From IMG/VR virus record IMGVR_UViG_3300032007_000017: a stretch of 64,000 nucleotides of DNA. One strand, written 5' to 3'. This DNA comes from a virus. Its lineage: Duplodnaviria; Caudoviricetes. The notes below the pieces were generated by a model, which saw only the letters and a list, made by a program, of their open reading frames with translations, searched no databases and was not told the origin of the DNA. Positions 1,094-57,084 of the stretch are shown here, piece by piece. Numbering within the stretch: position 1 is the stretch's first letter; the number at the start of each line of letters is the position of its first letter. The position numbers and the translations under genes are program-made.

Positions 1094-3883
1094 TTATTCT
1101 TCACTCATGATACCATCATTGGAGATTTTATCTTTACGATAGTATTTCTCTCCTTTGAGGTTCATATGATACTTTACTTTAGAACGTTGTCTTTCGAGAT
1201 TTCTTTGAATCTCATACAACTTTCTAAGAGCTTTCAAGTCATTCTTAGATTCTGCTGTGTCAATATATTTCTGACACATCTTCAGCTCGACATCGAGCTC
1301 ATCAAGAATCTGTTGACGTTGTTTCGACTGAAGTGCTTTAGTTCCTCCAATATAACCCAAAACTCCAATAACAGCAATTGCAGGGTCAATCAGAGCAGCG
1401 CCACCAGCCAGAATAGCTAGCTTAATAGTTTTAGAAGCACTAGGAATCAGAGATCCTTTGATAACAGCCTCACGATTATTTGACGTAAGAGCTCTCTCAG
1501 CAGACTTTCTAAAATTATTTGCCGCAACATCAATATTCTTACTGATAGTCTTGTCTTTATCAGAAAGCTTCTGTAAGCCTTTCTTGACTTTCTCAGAAGC
1601 AAGCTTCAAAGAATTCAAAACAGACGCTTCAGTAAGAGGAGTTTTATAGATTGCTGCATTATACATCTCAGTCAATCCCATAATAATCTGAAGTCTACCA
1701 GTAAGACGCATAGCCTCACTCATAATATCTTCAGTATTATGGCTCTGCGGGAACATAATGCCTAGCTTTCTATATACATTATCTATGTCATATTTGTCTG
1801 AATAATCAAGTTTAGTAACACCAATCTTAGCATCAGATTTCACATCACTGATAGCAAAAGACAGTGCATCTTTAGAAATGATTTCAGGACTAATACGACA
1901 GACATCGTATAGATCTGTTGCAATGGAAGGATTAGCCTCAATGATTGTATGGAGTTTAGCCTGATCAAAGGATTTAATATCCATATTATCATAAGCTTCA
2001 CTCAATGCAGACATGAGAGCTACATATTTAGCTGATTCTCCAAAGTCTTCAAGATCTCCAAAATCATCATCATTGAAATCGAAGTCTCCTAAATCAAAAT
2101 CTTTGAAGTCATCATCATCAATGTCAATGCTCCCAATAGAAGTATCATCGATGGGCTCATCTTCATCATACTTCTTATCGAGTTCTTCATCATTCAACAG
2201 AGTTTCATAATACTGATCAAGCTTTTGATAGGTATTATAAACCTCTTTTCTATACTCTTGAAGATTCTTTTTCTCTTCATCATTCTTACAGGATTCAATC
2301 TTCTTGTCAACTGCCTTGATTTCAGCTTTAAATGCATTACGTGCTTTAATAGCTTCTTCTCTAGACATATGCATTGCAAGAAGTTTATCTCCTAAGAATA
2401 CGATAGCACCTACTACTGGATGAATAGCAATTCCTCCAATAACAAAAACTCCACGAATATACTTTAACAGATCAGGAAGTTCTTCAACGGAGTTTTCAAT
2501 GCTACCAGCATAAAGCCTGTGAATCAAAGCTTTTAATTTATTTGGTTTATCTGCATCATCAGAAGTTTTGAATTTATTCATAATCTCCTGATAATCAACC
2601 TTCTCTTGAATGCTGACAGCTCCTCCAGGAGTGCTATCCATAATAGCACTAAAGGTAGTATCAGTTAAGAAAGATTCATTCTTAGCAGAATAGTATTTAC
2701 TGAATCGATTATCAGGACCGACATCGACACTCATACCATACTGCTTAATCTTCTTTTTGATATTTCGAGCAAGTTCAGCTTCATCTGCAGAATCGCAATG
2801 ATTAAACATTTGAATTGCAGATCTTACATGTGATTCATCAGGCATTGGATATTTTCTCTTGGAAGGAAGACCATAGTCTTTATCCGAAATAAATGCTCTT
2901 TGACGAGAAGTAAGTTTGGATTCATCCAGAGGATAATCATCATCAACCTCGTCATCATGAATTACATCGAGATCTCCATTATAGTCATTCTTATCGAAAA
3001 CTATAGATCCCTCGAGCATAGTTCTACAAGCAACACTATTTTCTCCAAGAGCCATGTAATAATCGGTAAGTGTAGTAACCAATTCAGATTCATCAAAAGT
3101 ATAAGCATTTCTATGAAGCCCATACCACATAGTCTCTAAACAGGTATTGAAGCGAGCTTTAAGAGGCATATCATATGTCTCAATTAACTTAGCAACTTCA
3201 ATCGCTGTATCAGAGATACCATTTATGATGGTATTCTCTTGAATGATTTTATCAATATTGAATCTCTTGGATACTCGGTTATAGTTCTCTAGAATCCTAT
3301 CGATTGATACAATCTTGGTAGCCTGCTCAAGCATACGCTCATATGCAGTAATTACAGCTTCCTGTTTAGCAGGACTACTATCAGGAGCAGGATTCTGAGG
3401 AGTTACAGATTGAACAAAACTTTTAGCAGGAGCTAGATTGGTTTGAAGGTTAGACTTAATATCATCAATAGATTTCTGAATCATATCAGTAATACTATTA
3501 AGATTCTTATTAACCAAGCTATTCTTGGCATTCATCTTTCCTTTAACTCTACCGAGCTTCTGCTTTAAATATGTTTGAGTCTCTTTGGCGTCTCTGGTTT
3601 TATTTACATACTCTTTGAGAATCAGATTACCATACTTATTGATCTGAGAAACAGTTCCATGTTCTGCCAGAGCATCAAAGAGATTATACATCGAAGATTC
3701 TGACATCGAATGGCTACTATCGCCAATAGCGCATTCAATACAAAAGATAATCTTAGAGGTAAAGCCTGATTGGATAGCTACTTCTGCTTGTTCATCAAAA
3801 GTATCTCTCCGCTTCAGATCTAAATTACCTTCTGGGATATTACGAATTCTGTTGCGTACATCTACTATACTCAACTGTTTCAT
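1094..3883 (-). CDS. Large virion/head protein with an inserted DUF6582-like domain
   Basis: 929 aa; LTSRQR..DKDYGLPSKRKYPMPDESHVRSAIQMF resembles the DUF6582 pattern; late promoter 3912-3923; GAGGTG/GAGG RBS. Confidence 0.75.
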   Translation of the reverse strand: MKQLSIVDVRNRIRNIPEGNLDLKRRDTFDEQAEVAIQSGFTSKIIFCIECAIGDSSHSMSESSMYNLFDALAEHGTVSQINKYGNLILKEYVNKTRDAKETQTYLKQKLGRVKGKMNAKNSLVNKNLNSITDMIQKSIDDIKSNLQTNLAPAKSFVQSVTPQNPAPDSSPAKQEAVITAYERMLEQATKIVSIDRILENYNRVSKRFNIDKIIQENTIINGISDTAIEVAKLIETYDMPLKARFNTCLETMWYGLHRNAYTFDESELVTTLTDYYMALGENSVACRTMLEGSIVFDKNDYNGDLDVIHDDEVDDDYPLDESKLTSRQRAFISDKDYGLPSKRKYPMPDESHVRSAIQMFNHCDSADEAELARNIKKKIKQYGMSVDVGPDNRFSKYYSAKNESFLTDTTFSAIMDSTPGGAVSIQEKVDYQEIMNKFKTSDDADKPNKLKALIHRLYAGSIENSVEELPDLLKYIRGVFVIGGIAIHPVVGAIVFLGDKLLAMHMSREEAIKARNAFKAEIKAVDKKIESCKNDEEKKNLQEYRKEVYNTYQKLDQYYETLLNDEELDKKYDEDEPIDDTSIGSIDIDDDDFKDFDLGDFDFNDDDFGDLEDFGESAKYVALMSALSEAYDNMDIKSFDQAKLHTIIEANPSIATDLYDVCRISPEIISKDALSFAISDVKSDAKIGVTKLDYSDKYDIDNVYRKLGIMFPQSHNTEDIMSEAMRLTGRLQIIMGLTEMYNAAIYKTPLTEASVLNSLKLASEKVKKGLQKLSDKDKTISKNIDVAANNFRKSAERALTSNNREAVIKGSLIPSASKTIKLAILAGGAALIDPAIAVIGVLGYIGGTKALQSKQRQQILDELDVELKMCQKYIDTAESKNDLKALRKLYEIQRNLERQRSKVKYHMNLKGEKYYRKDKISNDGIMSEE

Positions 3884-3940: not shown

Positions 3941-4072
3941 CATACTCCCAGGGAAATTCCCTGGGAGTATGACTCGATCATAGGAGGTCCCCAAAAACAA
4001 TGTCTGCAAAGCCCGACACCCGCAGATATCTTATTTGAGTTTAACCAATGAGGCGAAATTCCATTGGCCTTT
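3941..4072 (-). ncRNA. Candidate late small RNA A (contains anti-SD)
   Basis: Own late promoter AACA-cttaag-TA (4083-4072); 5' hairpin GGCCAATG/CATTGGTT; AAATAAG; internal hairpin; GGACCTCCTATGATCGAGTCA; terminal hairpin 3941-3971; no ORF with an RBS on this strand; paralog at 56226-56391. Confidence 0.6.
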
Positions 4073-4139
4073 ACTTAAGTGTTATGCACAAACTTGTCAC
4101 ATATGAGAAAAAAAATAAAGTTATTTTATAGGGGTGGTG

Positions 4140-4341
4140 GGGAGGGTTGTACATTTCTGTACAACCCTCCCAGATGAGGTGACAAAGAAGGTGATGGCCA
4201 TCTCGAGAGAAGGAGAAACCCTGGATGGGGAAGATGCAAAATCATGTCAAATATAAACTACACCGTCAGCAGTTTTTCGACGATTTGACTATGAATACAA
4301 GCACCTATTGTACTCTCGAGACTTATTTACTTCTTCATCAC
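4140..4341 (-). ncRNA. Candidate early rod-shaped structured RNA
   Basis: Early motif TATATTAT at 4353-4346; nested stems GTGATGAAGAAG/CTTCTTTGTCAC, TCTCGAGAG/CTCTCGAGA and GTCAAAT/ATTTGAC; ends in hairpin 4140-4171; no ORF. Confidence 0.6.
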
Positions 4342-4385
4342 GATAATAATATATAATCAAAACTTGATTTAATTACGAAATTACA

Positions 4386-4423: not shown

Positions 4424-5269
4424 TTAGAATTTAGAGCAATAGTCCTCAATATCATTCTTGATATAAGACTCAAGATTGACATAGAACTTCTCACCATTCT
4501 TGGTACTAAGCATGACAGCAGTACCACCACGAACAAGTTGAATGGATTCATAGAATACCTCAAACTGTTCGATGATAGAACGGACGTTAGCAGACTCCTG
4601 CTTGATATAGCTCATAACTTCCTCATTCATAATGGGGATAATAGAGCTCTCAGTGACAATCTTCTTATCCTTCTTAGCCATAGCAGCTTCAAAGTAAGAA
4701 TTGAAAGACTTCTGAACACCAGCAGACTCTGTAACGAGTTTATGTGTATATGCTCCAGGATGAGAGGGGAAGATAACGAAGTCATGTGTAATGTACTTCA
4801 GATCTCTAACGAGATTTCTTCCACCAATCTGCTGAAGGGTACCAAGCGAACGCATAGAAAATGCAGGCTTGCAACCCTCAAGAAGATCCTTATTAACAGC
4901 TTCACCATAATCATTATTTGTTCCAGTATAGTGAGCCATCCACTTCGGACCATCCATCCAGAACTTTAGATAACGGACAGCAGTCTCTTTAGGATCGATC
5001 GTTTGCTGGCGAATAATAGAAGAATCCATCGGGTGACCAGCCTCACCGAGCATATAACCAGCGGCAAGCAGTTCTTTTGTACGAGCACAATTCTGCTCTC
5101 TGGTAAGATCAGCAGTCAGATAGCAACGACCATTGCGGTTCTCTTCCTCGCCTTCTTGAAGGCAAGCTTCGCCGATAGGCTTATTATTTGAGGTGCCAAC
5201 AATATGAGCATCACTAGCAGTGTAAGCATCCTCAAGAATGATATGTCCAATATTAATAGCGGCAGGCAT
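4424..5269 (-). CDS. Prohead (head maturation) serine protease, T4 gp21-like
   Basis: ENRNGRCY, catalytic His in GEAGHP, Ser in AFSMRSLG, Asp in ITHDFVIFPSHPGAY; AACT-N6-TA promoter 5296-5307. Confidence 0.9.
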   Translation of the reverse strand: MPAAINIGHIILEDAYTASDAHIVGTSNNKPIGEACLQEGEEENRNGRCYLTADLTREQNCARTKELLAAGYMLGEAGHPMDSSIIRQQTIDPKETAVRYLKFWMDGPKWMAHYTGTNNDYGEAVNKDLLEGCKPAFSMRSLGTLQQIGGRNLVRDLKYITHDFVIFPSHPGAYTHKLVTESAGVQKSFNSYFEAAMAKKDKKIVTESSIIPIMNEEVMSYIKQESANVRSIIEQFEVFYESIQLVRGGTAVMLSTKNGEKFYVNLESYIKNDIEDYCSKF

Positions 5270-6894: not shown

Positions 6895-9423
6895 AGAATT
6901 TAGGTACAGAAGTCTTACCAACAGCATCAGGAAGTTTGAGTGTTAAATTATAGATTGCTTGATAAGCTTCATTACCACAGTTACGAATCGGAGTTCCTCC
7001 CATACCAATAAGATTAAAGTTCTGATTCATAACATGCTCGAGTTCCTCATTAGCCTCATCTGTGTATATTGGTTTCACGGTAATCGTATCGCCATCGTAA
7101 TCTAGATTAGTAAATAGTATTTACGGTAAGATAAATATTATTTTTTTTTACTTAAGTTCGCAATTCTTAAGCGCTTTCGCTTCTCATACTTTCGTATGAG
7201 TATAGATCATATGTTCACCCTTCTCTTTCGAGTTAGGGGCAGGATTTTTCTTCTGCCGTAAGCTTGCAGTTCTACTCTCCCGTCAGGAGATGATCGTTGA
7301 ACCTTCACCATTTTACAGGCGAGTGGCTGCTGAATTCCCATTTGCGATACCTGAGTTTTAGGATTTAACCATGACCCATCCTAATTACTTTTTTCTACTT
7401 TCGTAACCATCACGCTTGCCTTTTCAAGCTACGTTGTGGTGAATTAGGCTTTAGGGATTGCCAGCAATTAACCCTGGAAACTTACTCATTACTGAATAAG
7501 CTGAGATTACCATTAGGCTACTCCATTAAGGCCATCGAGATACAAATTACAGATATTAGCCGAGTCTACAAACATATTGGATGTATTGTTTCCAATATCA
7601 TCCTGGCGTATATATGGATAATTCTTATAGAACTTTCCATCTATTACCATAGGCTCTGTTTTATTGGTAGAGTTTACATGGATTCCAATAGGAAATTGAT
7701 TGTAGATAGAATCTCAATTGTGTTCAACTAGGGTCGCTAATCCTAGCCCGCTTTATTCAAGCTGCACTATGTCACCATAGTAGTTCAGACTATATCACCA
7801 TCTCAGAGAGATGTTCCGCATTTCGACCCGCTTGGGCCTACGTCATAAAGACTAGTCGTTGAGCCTTCCTAGCACATCCTTTTACTCTAGGCTTGGTTGC
7901 TGATTGTCTCATTTTGAGAGTTTCCAGCAATTAACGGAATTTTCTTAATAGATCGCTCTATTAAGCCACGAATTCATGGGATATCTACATATAATAGCTT
8001 TACGACCTTCAGCAGCTTCTACAGTTGCAATATAGATCAGGTCACACCATGTAAACCAACGTTCAACAATAGGCATATTGCCTACACCAGATTCGTATTC
8101 TTCTTTAGTTACATTGAATCCTTTAAAATGAAGGTAGATCTTTCTACCATCAACAGTTTCAACTTCAATAGGAAGTAATCTGGTCGAATAACCATTGCAG
8201 AAACGGTTAAGTTCTTTACGCAATCTCTCTTCAGAAAATTGCATTTGATAGTCTTTAATATAGACTATCTCTTCTTTTCCTGTCTTGGGATCAATACAAG
8301 GAACTCCTTTATTTCCAGAGAAAGCGTTTTCAAAATACCTCTTCATATGGAAGATGACAAAAGGAGTAAAGTTTGCTGCTGCTGATGCAAGAGGAATGGC
8401 AGCATAATCCAAGTCAGCCTGCATGTCTTCGATCTTTTCAACCTTCAATTCAGGGGCTGACATAACAAGACGAGAAGCATAGTCGGTGGTCTTAGACATA
8501 ACAGAACGTCTAAGAACACCAAGCTTACCAGGAACATTAGGTCCTGTAGTAGTACCATTAATAGTAGTACCATTTCCAAAATAGTCAAAGATCTGAACAA
8601 TCGACATTTGAATACGACCACGAGTAGCTCCAGCCATATCCAATCCATAGTCAGTAGATTCTTTAAGAGCTTTAGTAGCGAGAATCAGATTACGATAGAG
8701 TTGATTAATCTCTCCGATAGAGATTCTGCCACCCTTAGATGTATCCACATCTCGTAATGCAGCAGGAATAACAACTATCTTTCTAATCCATGCACCAGGA
8801 TCTCGTTTACAAGCATTGATAAAATCAACGTCTTGATCTCTACGGATTGATGCTGTTCTTGCTACATTGATTTTCTCAAAGTTATCCTTTAAGAACTTCA
8901 ATCCAGTCTTACCGTGTTCAGGATCTTCTACCAATACTCCATTATCAGTAATGGAGAAATATTTCGTTTCATTAACACAAGCAGGAATCTTCTTATCAAG
9001 CTTAGACCATACTTTATAGAGTTCTGGACTCATAAACCACTCATGAAGATCAATATAAGCACAAGTGTTCATACGATCATACATAGTGATTCCAAAGATC
9101 TCATTGGATAATAGTCCATCTGAGGTAGGAATATTATTTCTAGAGAAAGTGATTGGATTGGTAATGGGCTTTAAATCATTAACCGAAACCAATCTATCTA
9201 CATCTAGAAGATTCACTCTCAGATGCTTAGGTCTCACTTGATTTCCATCTTCATACAGAAAGTTTTCAATCAAGAATCTCATGAAACCTTCTGCTTTATC
9301 TGCACTTTTTACTTTAGTAGGAGTATTATACCTGTCATCATAGTTTTCATGCTTGGCAAATAATTCAGGATCTTCATTTCCTAAATATCCACCATTTCTA
9401 ATACTATATGGTAAAATACCCAT
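6893..9423 (-). CDS. DNA-directed RNA polymerase beta'-like subunit (N-terminal plus catalytic part; probably virion RNAP). Three exons: 9423-7976, 7714-7521, 7101-6893; about 616 aa spliced
   Basis: SDGLLSNEIFG (cf. DGLFCERIFG), GKLGVLRRSVMSKTTDYASRLVM (cf. [23 protein letters not shown]); splicing restores CRYPIDSIYNQFP and DGLNGDYDGD; late promoter 9442-9453. Confidence 0.9.
7102..7520 (-). mobile_element. Group I intron 2 inside the DYDGD active-site codons (~419 nt, no ORF)
   Basis: P AATTGCTGGCAA, Q AATTCAGCAGCC, R GTTCAACGATCA, S GAACATATGATCT; guide GTAATCTC complementary to the ligated junction GAG|ATTAC; boundary uncertain by 1 nt. Confidence 0.88.
7715..7975 (-). mobile_element. 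Group I intron 1 in the RNAP gene (261 nt, no homing endonuclease ORF)
   Basis: P AATTGCTGGAAA, Q AATCAGCAACC, R TCAACGACTA, S GATATAGTCTG; 5' exon CCAU pairs with GUGG (U.G pair); terminal G at 7715; removal restores the reading frame. Confidence 0.92.
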
Positions 9424-10222: not shown

Positions 10223-12648
10223 TCAGCTTCGATCTTAGCACCACACTTGGGACATTCAGTAGCAGGAATCTGATAAGTCATATCCTCGCTTGTCTGGAAG
10301 AGTTCAGCAATTCTTGTCCTAAGCTCGAAATAGTTATCAGAAGGCAGGGTCTGAATAATATCCGAAAGAATTGTAATCTTCTTCGCAGTACTCTTTGCAG
10401 GATTGGACTTATCATAACCGAAATCAATCGGCTTAAGCTTCATAGACTCCTCATCGATCATATAGATAGAATCGATGAAAGACATCGTATCAAGAAGGTC
10501 TTCATACTTCTCAAGGAATTCCTCAGACAGAGAGGCAGTTTCCATTACCATATTCCAGATGGAAGGATCTTTCAGTCCAACCACATACTGATCAGAGATC
10601 TGATGTAGTTCAACTTCATATCCAGCAATGGAGAAGTCTCCACTCTCGAAGATCTTACGAATACGTGCCTTAGCCTCTTCGCTAGCATACTTAACCATGT
10701 CGGTATCGAAGTCATAATCCTGGAGCCAGATGTGGTGGCATTCAGGGCACTCATAGTGGACATAGTTAGAGCCGGCGAATGTAGCCTTATGAATAGCAGC
10801 ATAGATATGATCGATATCAGAGAATCGAGTTACCTTAAGCCACTCATCAAAGGTATTCGGCTTAGGAGAAGTAATATGACGATAAATAATACCATAGATC
10901 TGTCTAAAGGTATTAATACGATTCTTGGTGCTGTTCTGAGGATTCATCGAGAAAAGCTCAGGACCATTGACTCCACGAACAGAGATACCCTTACCTGCAT
11001 TAGGAAGAACATGATCTGCAGTATTTACATCTTTGATGGAGAAACCAGCAACCTGAGAAGCACTAATAGGAGTATCATCGATTGTGAAGTTAGACAGATC
11101 AAGACGCTTCATCACCTTGATATTTGCCTTAACTGCACTCTTCATATCCTCAAGAATCTCTTCATCAGTACGAACCTGTGCATCTTCACCAAGTTCGAGC
11201 TCAAGATCATTCTTGATATTGCTGATATTGATAGCACCTTCCTTAGCAGCTTCTCCCTCATAAGAACTCTCAATCACGAGCTTCTTCTTAGGAGTTTCAA
11301 CAGGAGCAGGTTCAACTTCAACCTTATGCTCTTCTGTATGAGCTTTATTAGGAATTACAAAAGTCTTATTGATTGACTCTTCTTCAGGTTCTTTGGAATC
11401 TGTCTCTTCGTTAGCAAGTTCTTTCAAAGCTGTAGCTTCATCGTTCTTTACAGCATTATCAAACTCATCGGGCTGTTCAGTTACAGCTTCAGTATTGGTT
11501 TCAGGAGTATTCAACTTAACTCCCCCCTTGCTTGCTAATTCGATGGCTTTCTGTGCAGTCGGCATATCAGAAGGAAGCTTCAGCACACGAATGTCATCGT
11601 TAAAATCAAGGTATTCATACAGATAACCTCTATGGAAGAAGTTATTATAAACACCTTCTACCGTATCATTAGGTTCAAGAACATGGATACCTGCAATATT
11701 CTCGATATTGACTTCGAGAATACCAACAAATCCATTTTTCTTTGCAACTAAGAACGGATGAACTGCGACTTCATTGGTAGCATTATTATGCATTACAATA
11801 GCCCACAGTTCTGCATATACATTTTGCTGCTCCAAGAATTTACGAGCATGGAGACAGCGATCGAAATAGTCAGCAGCAGTAACTTTGTTCTTGACATAGT
11901 TATATGCCTCAAGACAACTGTTTACAAACTGCTGCTCATTCTGAGATTTATCAACAGAAGCAACTTTTCCGCCGATCTTGATTGTCTTTTTAATAGACTC
12001 TTCATTATCGTCTTTCTGCTCACCATTGATCTGTCTTTCGCGTTCTGCATCGAGTTCTGCATCAGACTCAGGATGCGCTACTGTCTTACCTTCAGCCTTT
12101 GCTTCAACGAACTCTTCATACTGTTTCGCTGTAAGAGCATCTACTCGTTCAGTAATACTCTCAAGCTCAGCATCTACTCCCAGTTCAAGATCGTTAAGAG
12201 CATCTTGCTCATCAAGATTAATAGTCTTATCAACCTTCTTGGGAAGGGATGCAGGATTGAAGGATTCCATACTACCCATATCTGCAGAAGGTACGAAATT
12301 ATTCATAACCTTCAGAGGAGTAGGATCAGGAACTTCTTCTTTGGGTTTGTATCCTCCATGAATTACCGGAGTAGCCTGAGCAGGTCTACCAGGATTAATA
12401 GGAGTACGTGCAGTTGATCTAACCTCATCTAATGATTGGATATTGCTATCACTATATTGAGGTTTAAAGGTAGGAGGAGTATCGAAGATAGGATCATACG
12501 CCTGTTCAGCTTGCTGCTGTCTTACCTGCTTCGCCTCTGCAGGACTGACATACTGACCTTGACGTTGAACTTTGCCCTTCGTTACATCAATCTTTTCGCT
12601 AGATGTGGTTTGCATTTGAATGATTTGCTTAGGATCAAAGTCAGGCAT
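10159..12648 (-). CDS. Baseplate/tail assembly protein with a C-terminal Zn-binding domain (T4 gp26/gp51-like)
   Basis: 829 aa; acidic disordered N-terminus; C-terminal CPEC...CPKC ending ILFRRHQ; directly follows the gp25-like gene. Confidence 0.55.
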   Translation of the reverse strand: MPDFDPKQIIQMQTTSSEKIDVTKGKVQRQGQYVSPAEAKQVRQQQAEQAYDPIFDTPPTFKPQYSDSNIQSLDEVRSTARTPINPGRPAQATPVIHGGYKPKEEVPDPTPLKVMNNFVPSADMGSMESFNPASLPKKVDKTINLDEQDALNDLELGVDAELESITERVDALTAKQYEEFVEAKAEGKTVAHPESDAELDAERERQINGEQKDDNEESIKKTIKIGGKVASVDKSQNEQQFVNSCLEAYNYVKNKVTAADYFDRCLHARKFLEQQNVYAELWAIVMHNNATNEVAVHPFLVAKKNGFVGILEVNIENIAGIHVLEPNDTVEGVYNNFFHRGYLYEYLDFNDDIRVLKLPSDMPTAQKAIELASKGGVKLNTPETNTEAVTEQPDEFDNAVKNDEATALKELANEETDSKEPEEESINKTFVIPNKAHTEEHKVEVEPAPVETPKKKLVIESSYEGEAAKEGAINISNIKNDLELELGEDAQVRTDEEILEDMKSAVKANIKVMKRLDLSNFTIDDTPISASQVAGFSIKDVNTADHVLPNAGKGISVRGVNGPELFSMNPQNSTKNRINTFRQIYGIIYRHITSPKPNTFDEWLKVTRFSDIDHIYAAIHKATFAGSNYVHYECPECHHIWLQDYDFDTDMVKYASEEAKARIRKIFESGDFSIAGYEVELHQISDQYVVGLKDPSIWNMVMETASLSEEFLEKYEDLLDTMSFIDSIYMIDEESMKLKPIDFGYDKSNPAKSTAKKITILSDIIQTLPSDNYFELRTRIAELFQTSEDMTYQIPATECPKCGAKIEAEDVTAQQILFRRHQTGAIAAL

Positions 12649-20763: not shown

Positions 20764-21573
20764 ATGGAAACAACCAATGCTAACGTTTTGACCCAGGAGG
20801 AGAACGTCTCCCCCAAGACTGAGGCGAACACCGAGAAGGACAAGATGACGATTGACCTCGATCCGATCAAGTTCGAGGCCGATGCGGAAACCATGTTCAT
20901 CAATGGTGCTCAGCTCACCGAAAAGATTAGCGCTATGTTCAAGGCCGTGTTTGCTGACTTTGTCGGCTGCCAGATCGTTACCAACAATCCTGGTATTGCG
21001 GCTCCTGAGATCGTTAATCGCACAATCGCGCCCGGTGCCATGTATGTGAATCTCTCCTTTGCGGAGAATAGTTCCAAGGATGGATACCATGTCCTGAAGC
21101 GCCGCTCCGAAACGAAGGGTACGAAGATGATCTCTCGTCTCAACTTCGTCAATGGCGGCATGTCCAACCGTATGTATACGATTGACGATGGGGCCAAGGA
21201 AGCTCTCGAAGAGTTCCTGCCGACTCAGTTCAACAAGAACAAGAAGCCTGACTTCGATGCTCGTTATGTTGAGCTCGTCAACTCTGCTCCGGCTGGATTC
21301 ATGAACTATGGCTTCAATGGTGGAAGCATGACCGAATGTAAGCTCTTTGGATTCCCCATCGAACTTCTGCTCAAGAAGATCTATGGTGCCAAGGACAGCG
21401 AAGGTCATGATCTCGAGTATGGCTGCAACCTGATTCGTATGACCGTCGATGGTCGTGATTCGGTTCTGCAGGTCACTCAGCTCAAGTCCTCTACCGTGAA
21501 CAAGCTGTTCAACATCATGGGTATGGGTCAGCAGCAGTTCGGTAATCCGATGCTGAACTATATGACCCGTTAA
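20764..21573 (+). CDS. Early protein with strong codon bias (likely highly expressed), function unknown
   Basis: 269 aa; many C-ending codons and higher GC; CATATTAT 20682-20689; leader hairpin; AGGAGG RBS; terminator 21597-21631. Confidence 0.8.
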   Translation: METTNANVLTQEENVSPKTEANTEKDKMTIDLDPIKFEADAETMFINGAQLTEKISAMFKAVFADFVGCQIVTNNPGIAAPEIVNRTIAPGAMYVNLSFAENSSKDGYHVLKRRSETKGTKMISRLNFVNGGMSNRMYTIDDGAKEALEEFLPTQFNKNKKPDFDARYVELVNSAPAGFMNYGFNGGSMTECKLFGFPIELLLKKIYGAKDSEGHDLEYGCNLIRMTVDGRDSVLQVTQLKSSTVNKLFNIMGMGQQQFGNPMLNYMTR

Positions 21574-27241: not shown

Positions 27242-27331
27242 GTCAAACCTCCTTAATAAGCATTTTACTAAAGTGTTCAAGGTAGTCAAAGAAACAAGAG
27301 AGTCCGAAGACTCTCTTGTTAAATGGTTTGA

Positions 27332-53670: not shown

Positions 53671-53824
53671 GGTATTATTCTCCTTTTAAATTTAAGATAT
53701 AAGAGGACCATCACTTCCTTCTTATTCATGATTATAATGTGTAACTGAAAATAGTGACTTTTACGGGTTCTTAGAAATCATCAACATTCAAATAATCTGT
53801 ATAAGATTGACTATACTCTAAAAA

Positions 53825-55431: not shown

Positions 55432-56199
55432 ATGGCTCCTATGAATAAGATGACTAATCTGCTCAATAAGATTGAGAGACGTTTAGGAACCAAAATGCTG
55501 AATCTTCCTGATGAACTCTCTAAAGATGAGTGGGCTAAAGTCATTGATGAAGACTCTTTAACTACTTTTTCTCGTTTCTTTCCTAATCAGATGACTATCA
55601 TTCTTGGGCCCGATCTTAAGAAACAAGATGGATGGTATCTGATTGATGAGTATATTCCTGATAATGTTGAAATCTTAGGAATTCGTGATATAGATTTCCC
55701 TATGCTTTCTCAAGATGCATCTACTCAGCATGATGCATATGGGTTTGGTATCTATTCTGTCCTTCCGACTGATTATTCTTATGATGATATTGCTGCTATT
55801 CAGATGAGAGCAGATTTAACTTCTATCTTTTTGAATCAGATCTTTGTCAAGTACAAAGCTCCTAATATGATTCGTTTGGAATCAAATTATCATACGGATG
55901 TCACTCGTGGATTTAAGAATTATCCTCTCCATCTTTTGATTAAGCATGCACCTAATCTGATGACGATTCCTCCTACCATGATGGAAACATTTGAGAATCT
56001 TGCTACTGCCGATGTAGCTAAATTCCTTCATGGTAATCTTAAGTACTTTGATGGAGCAGAAACAGTCTATGCAAATCTCGATCTTAAACTTCAAGACTTA
56101 GAACAAGAAGCTAATAAGAGAGATGATATTGTAAAAGAACTTGATGATGCTCATGTCTCTGCTGCAAATCAGAATCAGCCTTTGATTCTCTGTGTATAA
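55432..56199 (+). CDS. Neck/head-completion protein (T4 gp13-like, tentative)
   Basis: N-terminal KIERRLG..IDEDSL..FSRFFP and C-terminal helical end with PLILCV; late promoter 55398-55409. Confidence 0.55.
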   Translation: MAPMNKMTNLLNKIERRLGTKMLNLPDELSKDEWAKVIDEDSLTTFSRFFPNQMTIILGPDLKKQDGWYLIDEYIPDNVEILGIRDIDFPMLSQDASTQHDAYGFGIYSVLPTDYSYDDIAAIQMRADLTSIFLNQIFVKYKAPNMIRLESNYHTDVTRGFKNYPLHLLIKHAPNLMTIPPTMMETFENLATADVAKFLHGNLKYFDGAETVYANLDLKLQDLEQEANKRDDIVKELDDAHVSAANQNQPLILCV

Positions 56200-56225
56200 A
56201 AATAAACTAAATTCAACAAATTGAT

Positions 56226-56391
56226 AAAGGACCGGCCAGTCCCGGTCCTTTATCTTTGACAAATAAGCATTAGGGTTATAATATCTTGACATGTTATGTC
56301 CTCCATTTATAAATATTTATATTTGAAGGACCTCCTATTCGAGTCAATAGAAGTGATAGTGGTATGACTGGCTACCACTATCACTTCTATT
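56226..56391 (+). ncRNA. Candidate late small RNA B (paralog of RNA A)
   Basis: AACA-aattga-TA 56215-56226; 5' hairpin; AAATAAG; internal hairpin; GACATGTTATGTCCTCC; GGACCTCCTATTCGAGTCA; 19-bp perfect terminal hairpin 56346-56391. Confidence 0.55.
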
Positions 56392-56442
56392 CATTCTTAT
56401 GGATCATATAAAAAAGAAAAACCGAGGGATTTCTCCCTCGGT

Positions 56443-57084
56443 TTATAAGTATGTGTGTAGTAATCTTGTGAGTAAAATAGCATTGCCAATATCAGCAGCA
56501 GGACTATATTTGATGAAAACTCTACCATCTTTTATATAAGACCCTTCAAAATGATCAATCAATTTATTTATAATATACTGATTGATACTAATTGTAATAA
56601 ATGAGTCTTTTGAATATCCTGTATTGATATTAAATGATAGATAAGACATCTTATGCAGTCCCATAAGCATTGCTTTATATTCTTTTGGATACTTATTATG
56701 GATATCTAAAGCACTAGCAATAGATGCATCCATGCGAATAAGCTGTGGATCGGTTCGATATCCACCATCCCCAAGAAATTCAATCCAATGCTGTTCATAT
56801 ATTGGAATAATTTCATCAATTATTCTTACATTAAGAGTATGGACAAATGCAGCTTTCGTTTGATCATCATGAACAAGCTGATCATATAACTCCTTTGTAT
56901 CATTTAGAGCTTTTAAACGAGCTTGATTTGTTAGACCTCTTAAAAGCTGATTGGTTGTTGCTTCATCGGTTATTTTACCATGTTTTTTATTAGCCGTTGA
57001 TAGTGCTGTTGATGCATAAGCTTCTATAATAACTGATTCAGGATCAGAAGCATCATAAAATGAATAATGCCCTACACTATACAT
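56443..57084 (-). CDS. Hypothetical protein
   Basis: 213 aa; GGAGG RBS; terminator 56418-56444. Confidence 0.75.
   Translation of the reverse strand: MYSVGHYSFYDASDPESVIIEAYASTALSTANKKHGKITDEATTNQLLRGLTNQARLKALNDTKELYDQLVHDDQTKAAFVHTLNVRIIDEIIPIYEQHWIEFLGDGGYRTDPQLIRMDASIASALDIHNKYPKEYKAMLMGLHKMSYLSFNINTGYSKDSFITISINQYIINKLIDHFEGSYIKDGRVFIKYSPAADIGNAILLTRLLHTYL

Follow-up and report, generated by a model that had tools for sequence, protein, structure and literature searches.

A gap of 540 nt separates the protease gene (4424-5269) from the DUF6582 gene (1094-3883) in the DNA of an uncultured phage, and a late-promoter motif within this gap points into sequence that holds no evident gene. 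What is made from this promoter, which of the two strands carries the function, and what could the product do? The whole stretch of DNA analysed here, called the window, comprises 64,000 nt, and positions refer to it unless they are marked as genome positions. An earlier note on the window had proposed that this locus (copy A) and an unlinked second locus (copy B) form a two-member family of late small RNAs that occlude ribosome-binding sites (RBS).

The source phage and its promoters

The window is part of an IMG/VR contig of 178,490 bases with a G+C content of 38% and a completeness estimate of 72%. The nearest GenBank relatives of its prohead protease, at 25-28% identity, are AR9, PBS1, vB_BsuM-Goe21 and jumbo phages of Staphylococcus and Listeria, and a profile search of the genome gave matches above the cut-off to the RNA polymerase families Rpb2_6 and Rpb1_2. 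Because the protease relatives are AR9-like and both polymerase matches are present, we place the source phage as a distant AR9-like jumbo phage; the genome combines predicted split multisubunit RNA polymerases with AR9/PBS1 kinship. Searches of GenBank phage DNA and proteins with copy A, copy B and the 929-aa protein returned no counterpart.

The AR9 report gives the late promoter as AACA-N6-TA/G, with transcription starting at the last base, and the early promoter as AT-rich (PMC5312081). The 178-kb genome contains 103 AACA-N6-TA sites, of which 47 are intergenic although intergenic DNA makes up only 8.7% of the genome; the intergenic sites lie mostly 15-35 nt upstream of a Shine-Dalgarno (SD) sequence and an ATG. 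A weight matrix was built from 31 gene-proximal sites of the source genome, with the consensus (t)tcAACA-N4-A-N-TAA. Judged by sequence and position, this class of late promoter is genuine in the source genome. A second class, TACATATTAT(T/A)AT-N-ATGAA(T/G), was found at about 40 intergenic sites (for example at 53731, 57090, 60117 and 62258), typically downstream of a terminator and 10-20 nt ahead of an SD. It is likely the early promoter and the analogue of the AR9 early promoter AAATATATATTAT-N6-G. Two large gene-free gaps outside the window (genome 133114-133647 and 158627-160078) also contain several late-promoter motifs in tandem, with a strong hairpin after each.

Structure of the locus

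Read on the minus strand, the gap contains an early-type promoter (about 4337-4355), a stretch of about 190 nt in which no ORF is credible, a terminator with a T-run (4143-4176), the late promoter P1, the unit A of 137 nt, a second late promoter P2 and finally the DUF6582 gene (Table 1). P1, described before as a perfect late promoter, is present and has the AR9-type form AACA-N6-TA/G; its score is equalled at only three coding positions in the 178-kb genome. The claim that it fires into some 130 nt without an RBS-led ORF also held, since no SD-led ORF was found there on the promoter (minus) strand. The proposed end of the unit at a 14-bp hairpin stood in part: the stem is perfect, but no U-tract comes after it, which leaves a discrete 3' end uncertain, and P2 lies downstream.

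In the predicted fold, a 5' hairpin and an internal hairpin are followed by an unpaired stretch with ACCUCCUAU and by the terminal hairpin (z = -4.1 against shuffles). The CCUCC within the anti-RBS segment has an unpaired probability of 0.69 compared to a mean of 0.36 for the molecule. This segment is the complement of the plus-strand AGGAGG-N12-ATG that precedes and starts a 12-codon mini-ORF (3998-4036, +).

Table 1. Features of copy A and copy B and of the sequences next to them (window positions).
Feature	Position	Strand	Details
Late promoter P1 of copy A	4072-4083	-	AACA-cttaag-TA; predicted start is the A of TA, 4072; 13.0 bits
5' hairpin of copy A	4043-4069	-	3 nt past predicted start; 6 Watson-Crick pairs and a G-U extension
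Internal hairpin of copy A	3990-4039	-	contains CUGCGGGUGUCGGGC, by eye like UUG(Y)GGGUC of the orthologues
Anti-RBS segment of copy A	3981-4002	-	CAU-N12-CCUCCUA; CCUCC at 3983-3987
Box common to A and B, in copy A	3970-3990	-	GGACCTCCTATGATCGAGTCA; exactly two copies in genome
Terminal hairpin of copy A	3941-3971	-	perfect 14-bp stem, then CAUUUAAUAAG; no U-tract
Second late promoter P2	3912-3923	-	AACA-atttaa-TA; 16.6 bits; 29 nt upstream of gene for the 929-aa DUF6582 protein
Late-promoter-like motif of copy B	56215-56226	+	AACA-aattga-TA; 7.4-9.6 bits
5' hairpin of copy B	56226-56251	+	10-12 bp, then UUUAUCUUU
First anti-RBS segment of copy B	56290-56304	+	CAU-N7-CCUCC
Second ACCUCC box of copy B	56328-56346	+	GGACCTCCTATTCGAGTCA; common with A; no CAU at start-codon spacing
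Terminal hairpin of copy B	56347-56390	+	18-19 bp, then U-rich tail AUUCAUUCUUAUGG
Tail motif and two-way terminator	56391-56445		TTATGGATCATATAAA, common with locus D; terminator of convergent gene 56443-57084

The part of the gap upstream of copy A is itself a second conserved non-coding unit (4105-4355, minus strand), with TATATATTATTAT-CGTGATG as its early-type promoter and a strong terminator. Directly ahead of this terminator the sequence CAGUGG(C/U)GUAG(U)UUAU(G/A)CC is kept in seven related contigs; the early unit had no match in Rfam. Opposite to it, a plus-strand ORF of 43 codons (4225-4356) follows AAGGAG-N9-ATG. It is probably a mirror-image RBS and not a gene, because in a related contig (L012) the nucleotides CCAGGGTTTCTCC are retained while the start is absent. 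Pairing of the copy A 5'-hairpin loop (ACGCCA-like) with the conserved GUGGCGU of the early unit was considered and rejected, the difference between cognate (-17.2 kcal/mol), non-cognate (-15.8 kcal/mol) and shuffled sequences (-14.0 ± 3.7 kcal/mol) not being significant.

Conservation in related phage contigs

With the protease as query, about 400 homologues were obtained; flanks were taken for ten of them and for one further contig from IMG/VR, and these contigs are referred to by working labels (L003, L012 and so on). Source samples of the contigs are ERR12023835, ERZ11466796, ERZ16268218 and ERZ27297479. In 11 of 11 contigs, with protease identities of 64-88%, the unit is kept downstream of the protease gene, between the protease and DUF6582 genes. 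Orthologues of copy A were found in ten other phage contigs, and the unit is missing from the more distant relative L006 and from AR9. The parts follow each other in the same order in the 11 contigs: late promoter, a hairpin formed with the very first RNA bases, a middle part that varies, (U)UCAU, a spacer rich in A/U, ACCUCC(U/A)A and a long perfect hairpin. Many orthologues have UUG(Y)GGGUC in the variable middle, and the hairpin that takes in the first RNA bases folds in all 12 units.

The sense promoter AAC(A/T)-N4-A-N-TAA is present in 11 of 11 orthologues, in contrast to a promoter-like motif on the opposite strand, which was seen in two of 12 units and at differing distances. This bears out the earlier description of an ORF-less structured unit with an exposed anti-SD/anti-AUG segment on the promoter strand. 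A CAU lies 5-12 nt upstream of CCUCC in ten of the 11 orthologues, compared to 14.8% for CCTCC in coding regions (binomial probability of the excess 5e-8, uncorrected for the relatedness of the contigs). The A preceding CCUCC is kept in 13 of 15 boxes, and the flanking sequence of the units is otherwise unalignable across contigs with MAFFT.

The position of the 3' hairpin is conserved, and double (compensatory) substitutions keep the pairing in eight of 14 aligned pairs. MAFFT aligned only this 3' hairpin and misplaced the CCTCC boxes, so that a covariance model built on the alignment would describe a generic hairpin. CCUCC is unpaired with a mean probability of 0.54 compared to 0.40 for the whole molecule and is more accessible in 12 of 14 cases, a modest effect. 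The 3' hairpin is followed by a U-tract in L135, L136 and L138 and partly in L012, L003, copy B and locus D (see below); the U-tract is absent in copy A and in most orthologues.

The L135 and L136 units close with a hairpin and a U-run, opposite a convergent gene, and in L013, L014 and L134 a cassette of small genes separates it from the DUF6582 gene, which has its own promoter in every case. Given the convergent gene and the intervening cassettes, the unit travels with the protease side and is not just a leader of the DUF6582 gene.

The convergent gene belongs to the Tad8 family (Pfam PF25189) and lies between the unit and the DUF6582 gene (L135 4107-4355, L136 4111-4392, minus strand). Other relatives have unrelated genes of 68-90 aa at the same insertion spot; since these genes and Tad8 occupy the same place, the junction between unit A and the DUF6582 gene is a hotspot for accessory genes. 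That copy A is a decayed copy of the small gene in the gap was also considered and dismissed: the small genes of L013-L015 are mutually unrelated and lie outside the unit.

Neither the unit nor the 11 related loci matched an Rfam family at gathering or relaxed thresholds. The best match in the copy A locus (E = 0.012) was far below the gathering score. The sole match in the window that reached the gathering score is a group I intron (RF00028, 93.7 bits, full-length match) at 7765-7987 on the minus strand.

Copy B and partial relatives in the genome

The 19-nt box GGACCTCCTAT(GA)TCGAGTCA occurs exactly twice in the genome, in copy A and in copy B, each time abutting a long perfect hairpin. The local alignment of A and B scores 6.4 sd above shuffles, the global alignment only 1.4 sd. 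Of the ordered elements that the earlier note had listed as common to both copies, the 19-nt box stood, whereas AAATAAG, GACAT(T)GTT and the ACTC/TTGAC arms agree no better than expected by chance. The low score of the copy B promoter motif (Table 1) results from the missing conserved A in the spacer. The 5' hairpin of copy B also has the look of a terminator for the virion gene upstream (55432-56199).

We propose that copy B is a mosaic paralogue made from the same kinds of modules. It shares the 19-nt box with A, the promoter and 5' hairpin with a locus C and the 3' tail with a locus D, both of which lie outside the window. At locus C (genome 123208-123260) the promoter and 5' hairpin of copy B recur nearly identically, with a compensatory G>A / C>U exchange; at locus D (genome 28616-28745) its 3' tail recurs. 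Further partial relatives in the genome are a locus F and a unit at genome 133329; the latter has the same build, as has a unit at about 21040-21240, ahead of thyX. With these relatives, C and D included, and the orthologues in ten other contigs, a family of two members was too narrow. The original observation is largely confirmed: copy A has a credible late promoter, an ORF-less stretch and a perfect terminal hairpin.

The surroundings of these relatives differ. Locus C (genome 123208-123400, +) continues after the 5' hairpin with different hairpins, has no ACCUCC and leads to a second late promoter and a gene of 626 aa. Locus D (genome 28605-28745, +) lies between convergent genes and consists of a weak late-promoter motif, CAU-N7-CCUCC, a 16-19-bp hairpin with a U-run and the TTATGGATCATATAAA tail, while its opposite strand reads AAAGGAGG-N7-ATG, followed by an ORF of 23 codons. 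In the unit at genome 133329, CAU-N9-CCUCC abuts a 20-bp hairpin; the gene at 27254 offers the start region for which the strongest pairing is predicted (-31.1 kcal/mol, z -3.9).

Searches for orthologues of the copy B flanks found none, and the exact 19-nt box had no match in IMG/VR. A looser pattern of the box gave 118 chance matches, which were used solely as a control set; CAT-N-CCTCC followed by a hairpin is common in this set because it mirrors ordinary gene starts.

Coding potential and the active strand

The plus strand of copy A contains the 12-codon ORF MSAKPDTRRYLI, started by AGGAGG, 12 nt and ATG. Across the units, the mini-ORFs of the opposite strand comprise 2, 3, 4, 12, 12, 20, 23 and 24 codons, and two have at least 27 and at least 31. 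No conserved peptide or frame was found among them: the peptide sequences show no relationship, and not even the close pair L135 and L136 shares a frame. Between A and B, the shared CTTATTTG is read in different frames. Since the mini-ORFs range from 2 to more than 30 codons without a conserved frame, the conservation is at the nucleotide level, which confirms the earlier view that it does not concern a peptide. L012 and the second box of copy B keep ACCUCC without a start codon. A gene for a small protein or a leader peptide on the plus strand is not supported, given the unrelated peptides and differing frames. A type I toxin-antitoxin system likewise lacks support, as the mini-ORFs have only 2-4 codons in three phages, there is no conserved or hydrophobic peptide and no promoter is seen on the ORF strand.

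Searches of the opposite strand for sigma-A-type promoters and for early or late phage promoters gave nothing consistent. Folding energy favours the sense strand in ten of 12 units, but 73% of the coding-region controls are also better in the sense direction (mean -3.8 kcal/mol), and because the controls show the same bias this test is uninformative. With uninformative folding energies and an opposite strand that reads as a start region, the promoter evidence is the main reason to prefer the minus (promoter) strand.

Candidate targets of the anti-RBS box

In these genomes the start regions of different genes agree with one another at 15-16 of 20 nt, at most at 19. Complementarity to an RBS of one gene or another therefore comes cheaply, and the anti-RBS box pairs with many of them. 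The top duplex z-scores (-2.5 to -3.9 among about 170 start regions) are near the extremes expected at that sample size, and control pairings across phages reach the same energies as cognate ones. Two targets had been named in the earlier note. The gene ending at 12648 came second for A and for the box of B (z -2.7 and -2.8), approximately what chance gives for one GGAGGTCC among 170 start regions, and gene 20764 was outside the top eight pairings. A comparison of early and late start regions showed no preference of the predicted pairing for early ones. Phage late genes have stronger SDs than early genes, so that a generic SD-binder would also strike the late genes of the phage.

The best of 178 start regions for copy A is that of thyX (genome 21025, minus strand; -26.2 kcal/mol, 8 + 11 bp). 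In the L003 phage thyX is again the best, here of 73 start regions, with -32.3 kcal/mol compared to -23.5 kcal/mol for the next one and 20 of 22 nt matching. The thyX genes of the source phage and of L003 are orthologues (43% identity, Thy1 domain). When thyX was also taken from three more unit-bearing contigs, the cognate energy was in the 5% tail in L012 and at percentiles of 0.37 in L013 and 0.30 in L136. A Fisher combination of the four percentiles, leaving out the phage that had given rise to the idea, yields about 0.006; this value is post hoc, the thyX idea having been formed after inspection of the data, and applies at best to the subgroup of A. By these modelled energies, thyX alone among the start regions gains some support as a candidate target, and this for the subgroup of A. 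As a universal target thyX was rejected, L013 and L136 being unremarkable. Masking in cis of the DUF6582 start region, which single folds had predicted, was rejected as well: the energies are -13.2 kcal/mol for cognate and -13.3 kcal/mol for non-cognate pairs, and the cognate ranks are scattered from 1 to 11.

The thyX leader of the source genome (genome 21040-21240, minus strand, outside the window) is itself a late-promoter unit with an ACCUCC box and has a proper terminator just before the thyX RBS. Since no other thyX promoter is seen in the source genome, regulated read-through into thyX is possible. In the L003 phage the thyX leader contains four ACCUCC boxes.

Proposed function and alternative explanations

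The feature is conserved in its parts and their order, and the simplest reading is a gene for a late small RNA in which an anti-RBS box is exposed. We favour the explanation that copy A is a member of a conserved, separately transcribed non-coding RNA gene in an uncultured AR9/PBS1-like clade and that its RNA masks RBSs in trans, and we give this a probability of about 0.42. For the parts, it is likely that a conserved late non-coding transcript is made at copy A, whereas masking of ribosome-binding sites as its mode of action is somewhat less likely than not. Transcription is inferred from the promoter motifs: the late (non-virion) RNA polymerase of the phage would initiate at AAC(A/T)-N6-TA and produce an RNA of about 130-210 nt with one hairpin capping each end. 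Between the hairpins, ACCUCC(U/A)A would be exposed, usually with (U)UCAU 5-12 nt upstream, which together form the complement of a complete consensus RBS. We infer that this RNA is a discrete molecule that pairs in trans. Its most likely action would be base pairing with the SD and start-codon regions of mRNAs, blocking initiation late in infection, and in the subgroup of A the start region of thyX, which encodes a flavin-dependent thymidylate synthase, would be a candidate target. The masking step is put no higher than plausible: the previously named targets score at chance level, early genes are not preferred and complementarity to an RBS is cheap. A broader version, in which a dispersed family of late RNAs in AR9-like jumbo phages displays, between two protective hairpins, the complement of a whole RBS (CAU in the place of the start codon and the 16S-like ACCUCCU) and silences chosen phage messages (thyX in one subgroup) or host messages late in infection, seems rather doubtful.

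The same nucleotides can be read from the other side. If the opposite strand were the functional one, the unit would consist of a hairpin, a genuine strong RBS and a throw-away mini-ORF, and ribosome binding as such would matter, for instance in an RNA stabiliser or a minigene; alternatively, this RBS would be silenced late by the complementary RNA as a cis-antisense. The SD, the A/U-rich spacer, the ATG and the AA at +4/+5 read equally well as a true RBS. GGAGG-N5-12-ATG is kept in ten of 11 orthologues with the A/U-rich spacers and ATGAA starts typical of real genes, and the lengths of the mini-ORFs resemble random read-out after a selected start. The genome has seven orphan intergenic GGAGG-ATG sites with short ORFs, four of them in gene-free units of this kind, and the SD-ATG spacing is exactly 7 in D and B. 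However, the rarity and variable distance of promoters on this strand, compared to a sense promoter in all units, argue against this explanation, as do the ACCUCC boxes that lack a start codon and the peptide frames that differ even in a close pair. Moreover, downstream of A the opposite strand would run only into the antisense of the protease gene, with nothing to express or stabilise. We consider a function of the opposite strand a serious rival, though a less likely one. The box has also a well-known look-alike: the anti-SD tail of 16S rRNA likewise reads ACCUCCU. The RNA could accordingly mimic the 16S rRNA 3' end (…ACCUCCU…) and act as a decoy that draws off a factor binding or cleaving this end, with no pairing to mRNA. 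The conserved A before CCUCC would fit, and several units have upstream a UGCGGGU-like motif that we take, by eye, to resemble loosely the 3' strand of helix 45. Yet the likeness amounts to 7 nt and a weak second motif, the hairpin follows the box whereas in 16S rRNA it precedes, and nothing at the 16S end corresponds to the conserved CAU, making a decoy by far the least probable explanation.

It is also conceivable that the units are transcription punctuation acting in cis, that is, cassettes of promoter and hairpin which insulate operons or give long or prematurely terminated 5' leaders and which are shuffled between intergenic regions. They would then have no target in trans, and ACCUCC and CAU would have arisen as a side effect or be remnants of gene starts that were inverted. 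The mosaic build of copy B, with promoter and 5' hairpin from C, box from A and tail from D, speaks for such cassettes, as does its 5' hairpin in the putative double role of terminator for the upstream gene. A, C and the unit before thyX precede genes and form tandems with a second promoter or with a terminator, and the junction behind unit A is an insertion hotspot. Precedents for the leaders are found in two reports: in AR9, 5' UTRs are 26-491 nt long and some genes have two start sites (PMC5312081), and most of the reported 201phi2-1 small RNAs arise from early termination in 5' UTRs (PMC11512511). Against pure punctuation, selection on ACCUCC and CAU amid unalignable sequence argues for a sequence-specific role, and the box does not favour its own DUF6582 start region over non-cognate ones. 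In addition, B and D are followed by no gene on their strand, and the convergent gene severs the unit from the DUF6582 gene in L135 and L136. On this evidence punctuation in cis is unlikely, and we retain the RBS-masking RNA as the preferred reading.

Whatever the mechanism, at least 11 uncultured jumbo-phage contigs share this new conserved non-coding element, which marks an insertion hotspot able to take up anti-defence genes, as with Tad8 in two contigs. To the early/late programme of these phages, a conserved late RNA that exposes an anti-RBS box would bring a further level of control, at translation. In phage T4, the RegB protein shuts off early messages; if the broader version above were true, RNAs complementary to RBSs would be the RNA counterpart of this protein-based shut-off.

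Comparison with known systems

To our knowledge, regulation by phage small RNAs is barely charted, and we know of none described for the AR9/PBS1 group, where expression is ascribed to the two phage RNA polymerases alone. In Firmicutes, small RNAs of the RsaE/RoxS type use C-rich seeds to mask Shine-Dalgarno sequences. They resemble the predicted RNA of the unit in their shortness, in having a promoter to themselves and terminal hairpins, in an unpaired stretch rich in C that is directed against GGAGG-type SDs, and in the presumed block of initiation. The unit has no match in sequence or structure to RsaE or to any Rfam family. It differs from both RNAs in being encoded by a phage and preceded by a late promoter for a phage polymerase, and its putative seed reaches the complement of the start codon and positions +4/+5. 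The opposite strand of the unit is reminiscent of the 5' hairpin or SD-type mRNA stabilisers of Bacillus and its phages, such as the cryIIIA STAB-SD and the SP82 leader, with which it has in common a hairpin, a few nucleotides and a strong SD. In contrast to these stabilisers it has no conserved promoter and no downstream message, and an ATG is kept in the unit whereas STAB-SD needs no start codon.

Within the same lineage, the AR9 report lists seven late promoters that drive antisense RNA, as well as genes with two starts and long UTRs (PMC5312081). These late transcripts without a gene share with the unit the promoter class AACA-N6-TA/G (PMC5312081). The protease region of AR9 is compact and without such a unit, and neither a conserved non-coding family nor an anti-SD box is described in the available part of that report (PMC5312081).

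Small RNAs of the giant Pseudomonas phages 201phi2-1 and phiKZ were found by ONT-cappable-seq (PMC11512511). According to this source, they are short units running from promoter to terminator, are located in intergenic regions or in 5' UTRs of structural genes and, like the unit, belong to jumbo phages with their own multisubunit RNA polymerases; one of them is conserved in position across genera and has no known function (PMC11512511). The unit differs in its AR9-like lineage, in SDs of the Gram-positive type and in its promoters. It also differs in its anti-RBS box, since none is reported for the 201phi2-1 and phiKZ RNAs in the available text (PMC11512511). These promoter-to-terminator RNAs of giant Pseudomonas phages are the nearest published parallel to the unit (PMC11512511).
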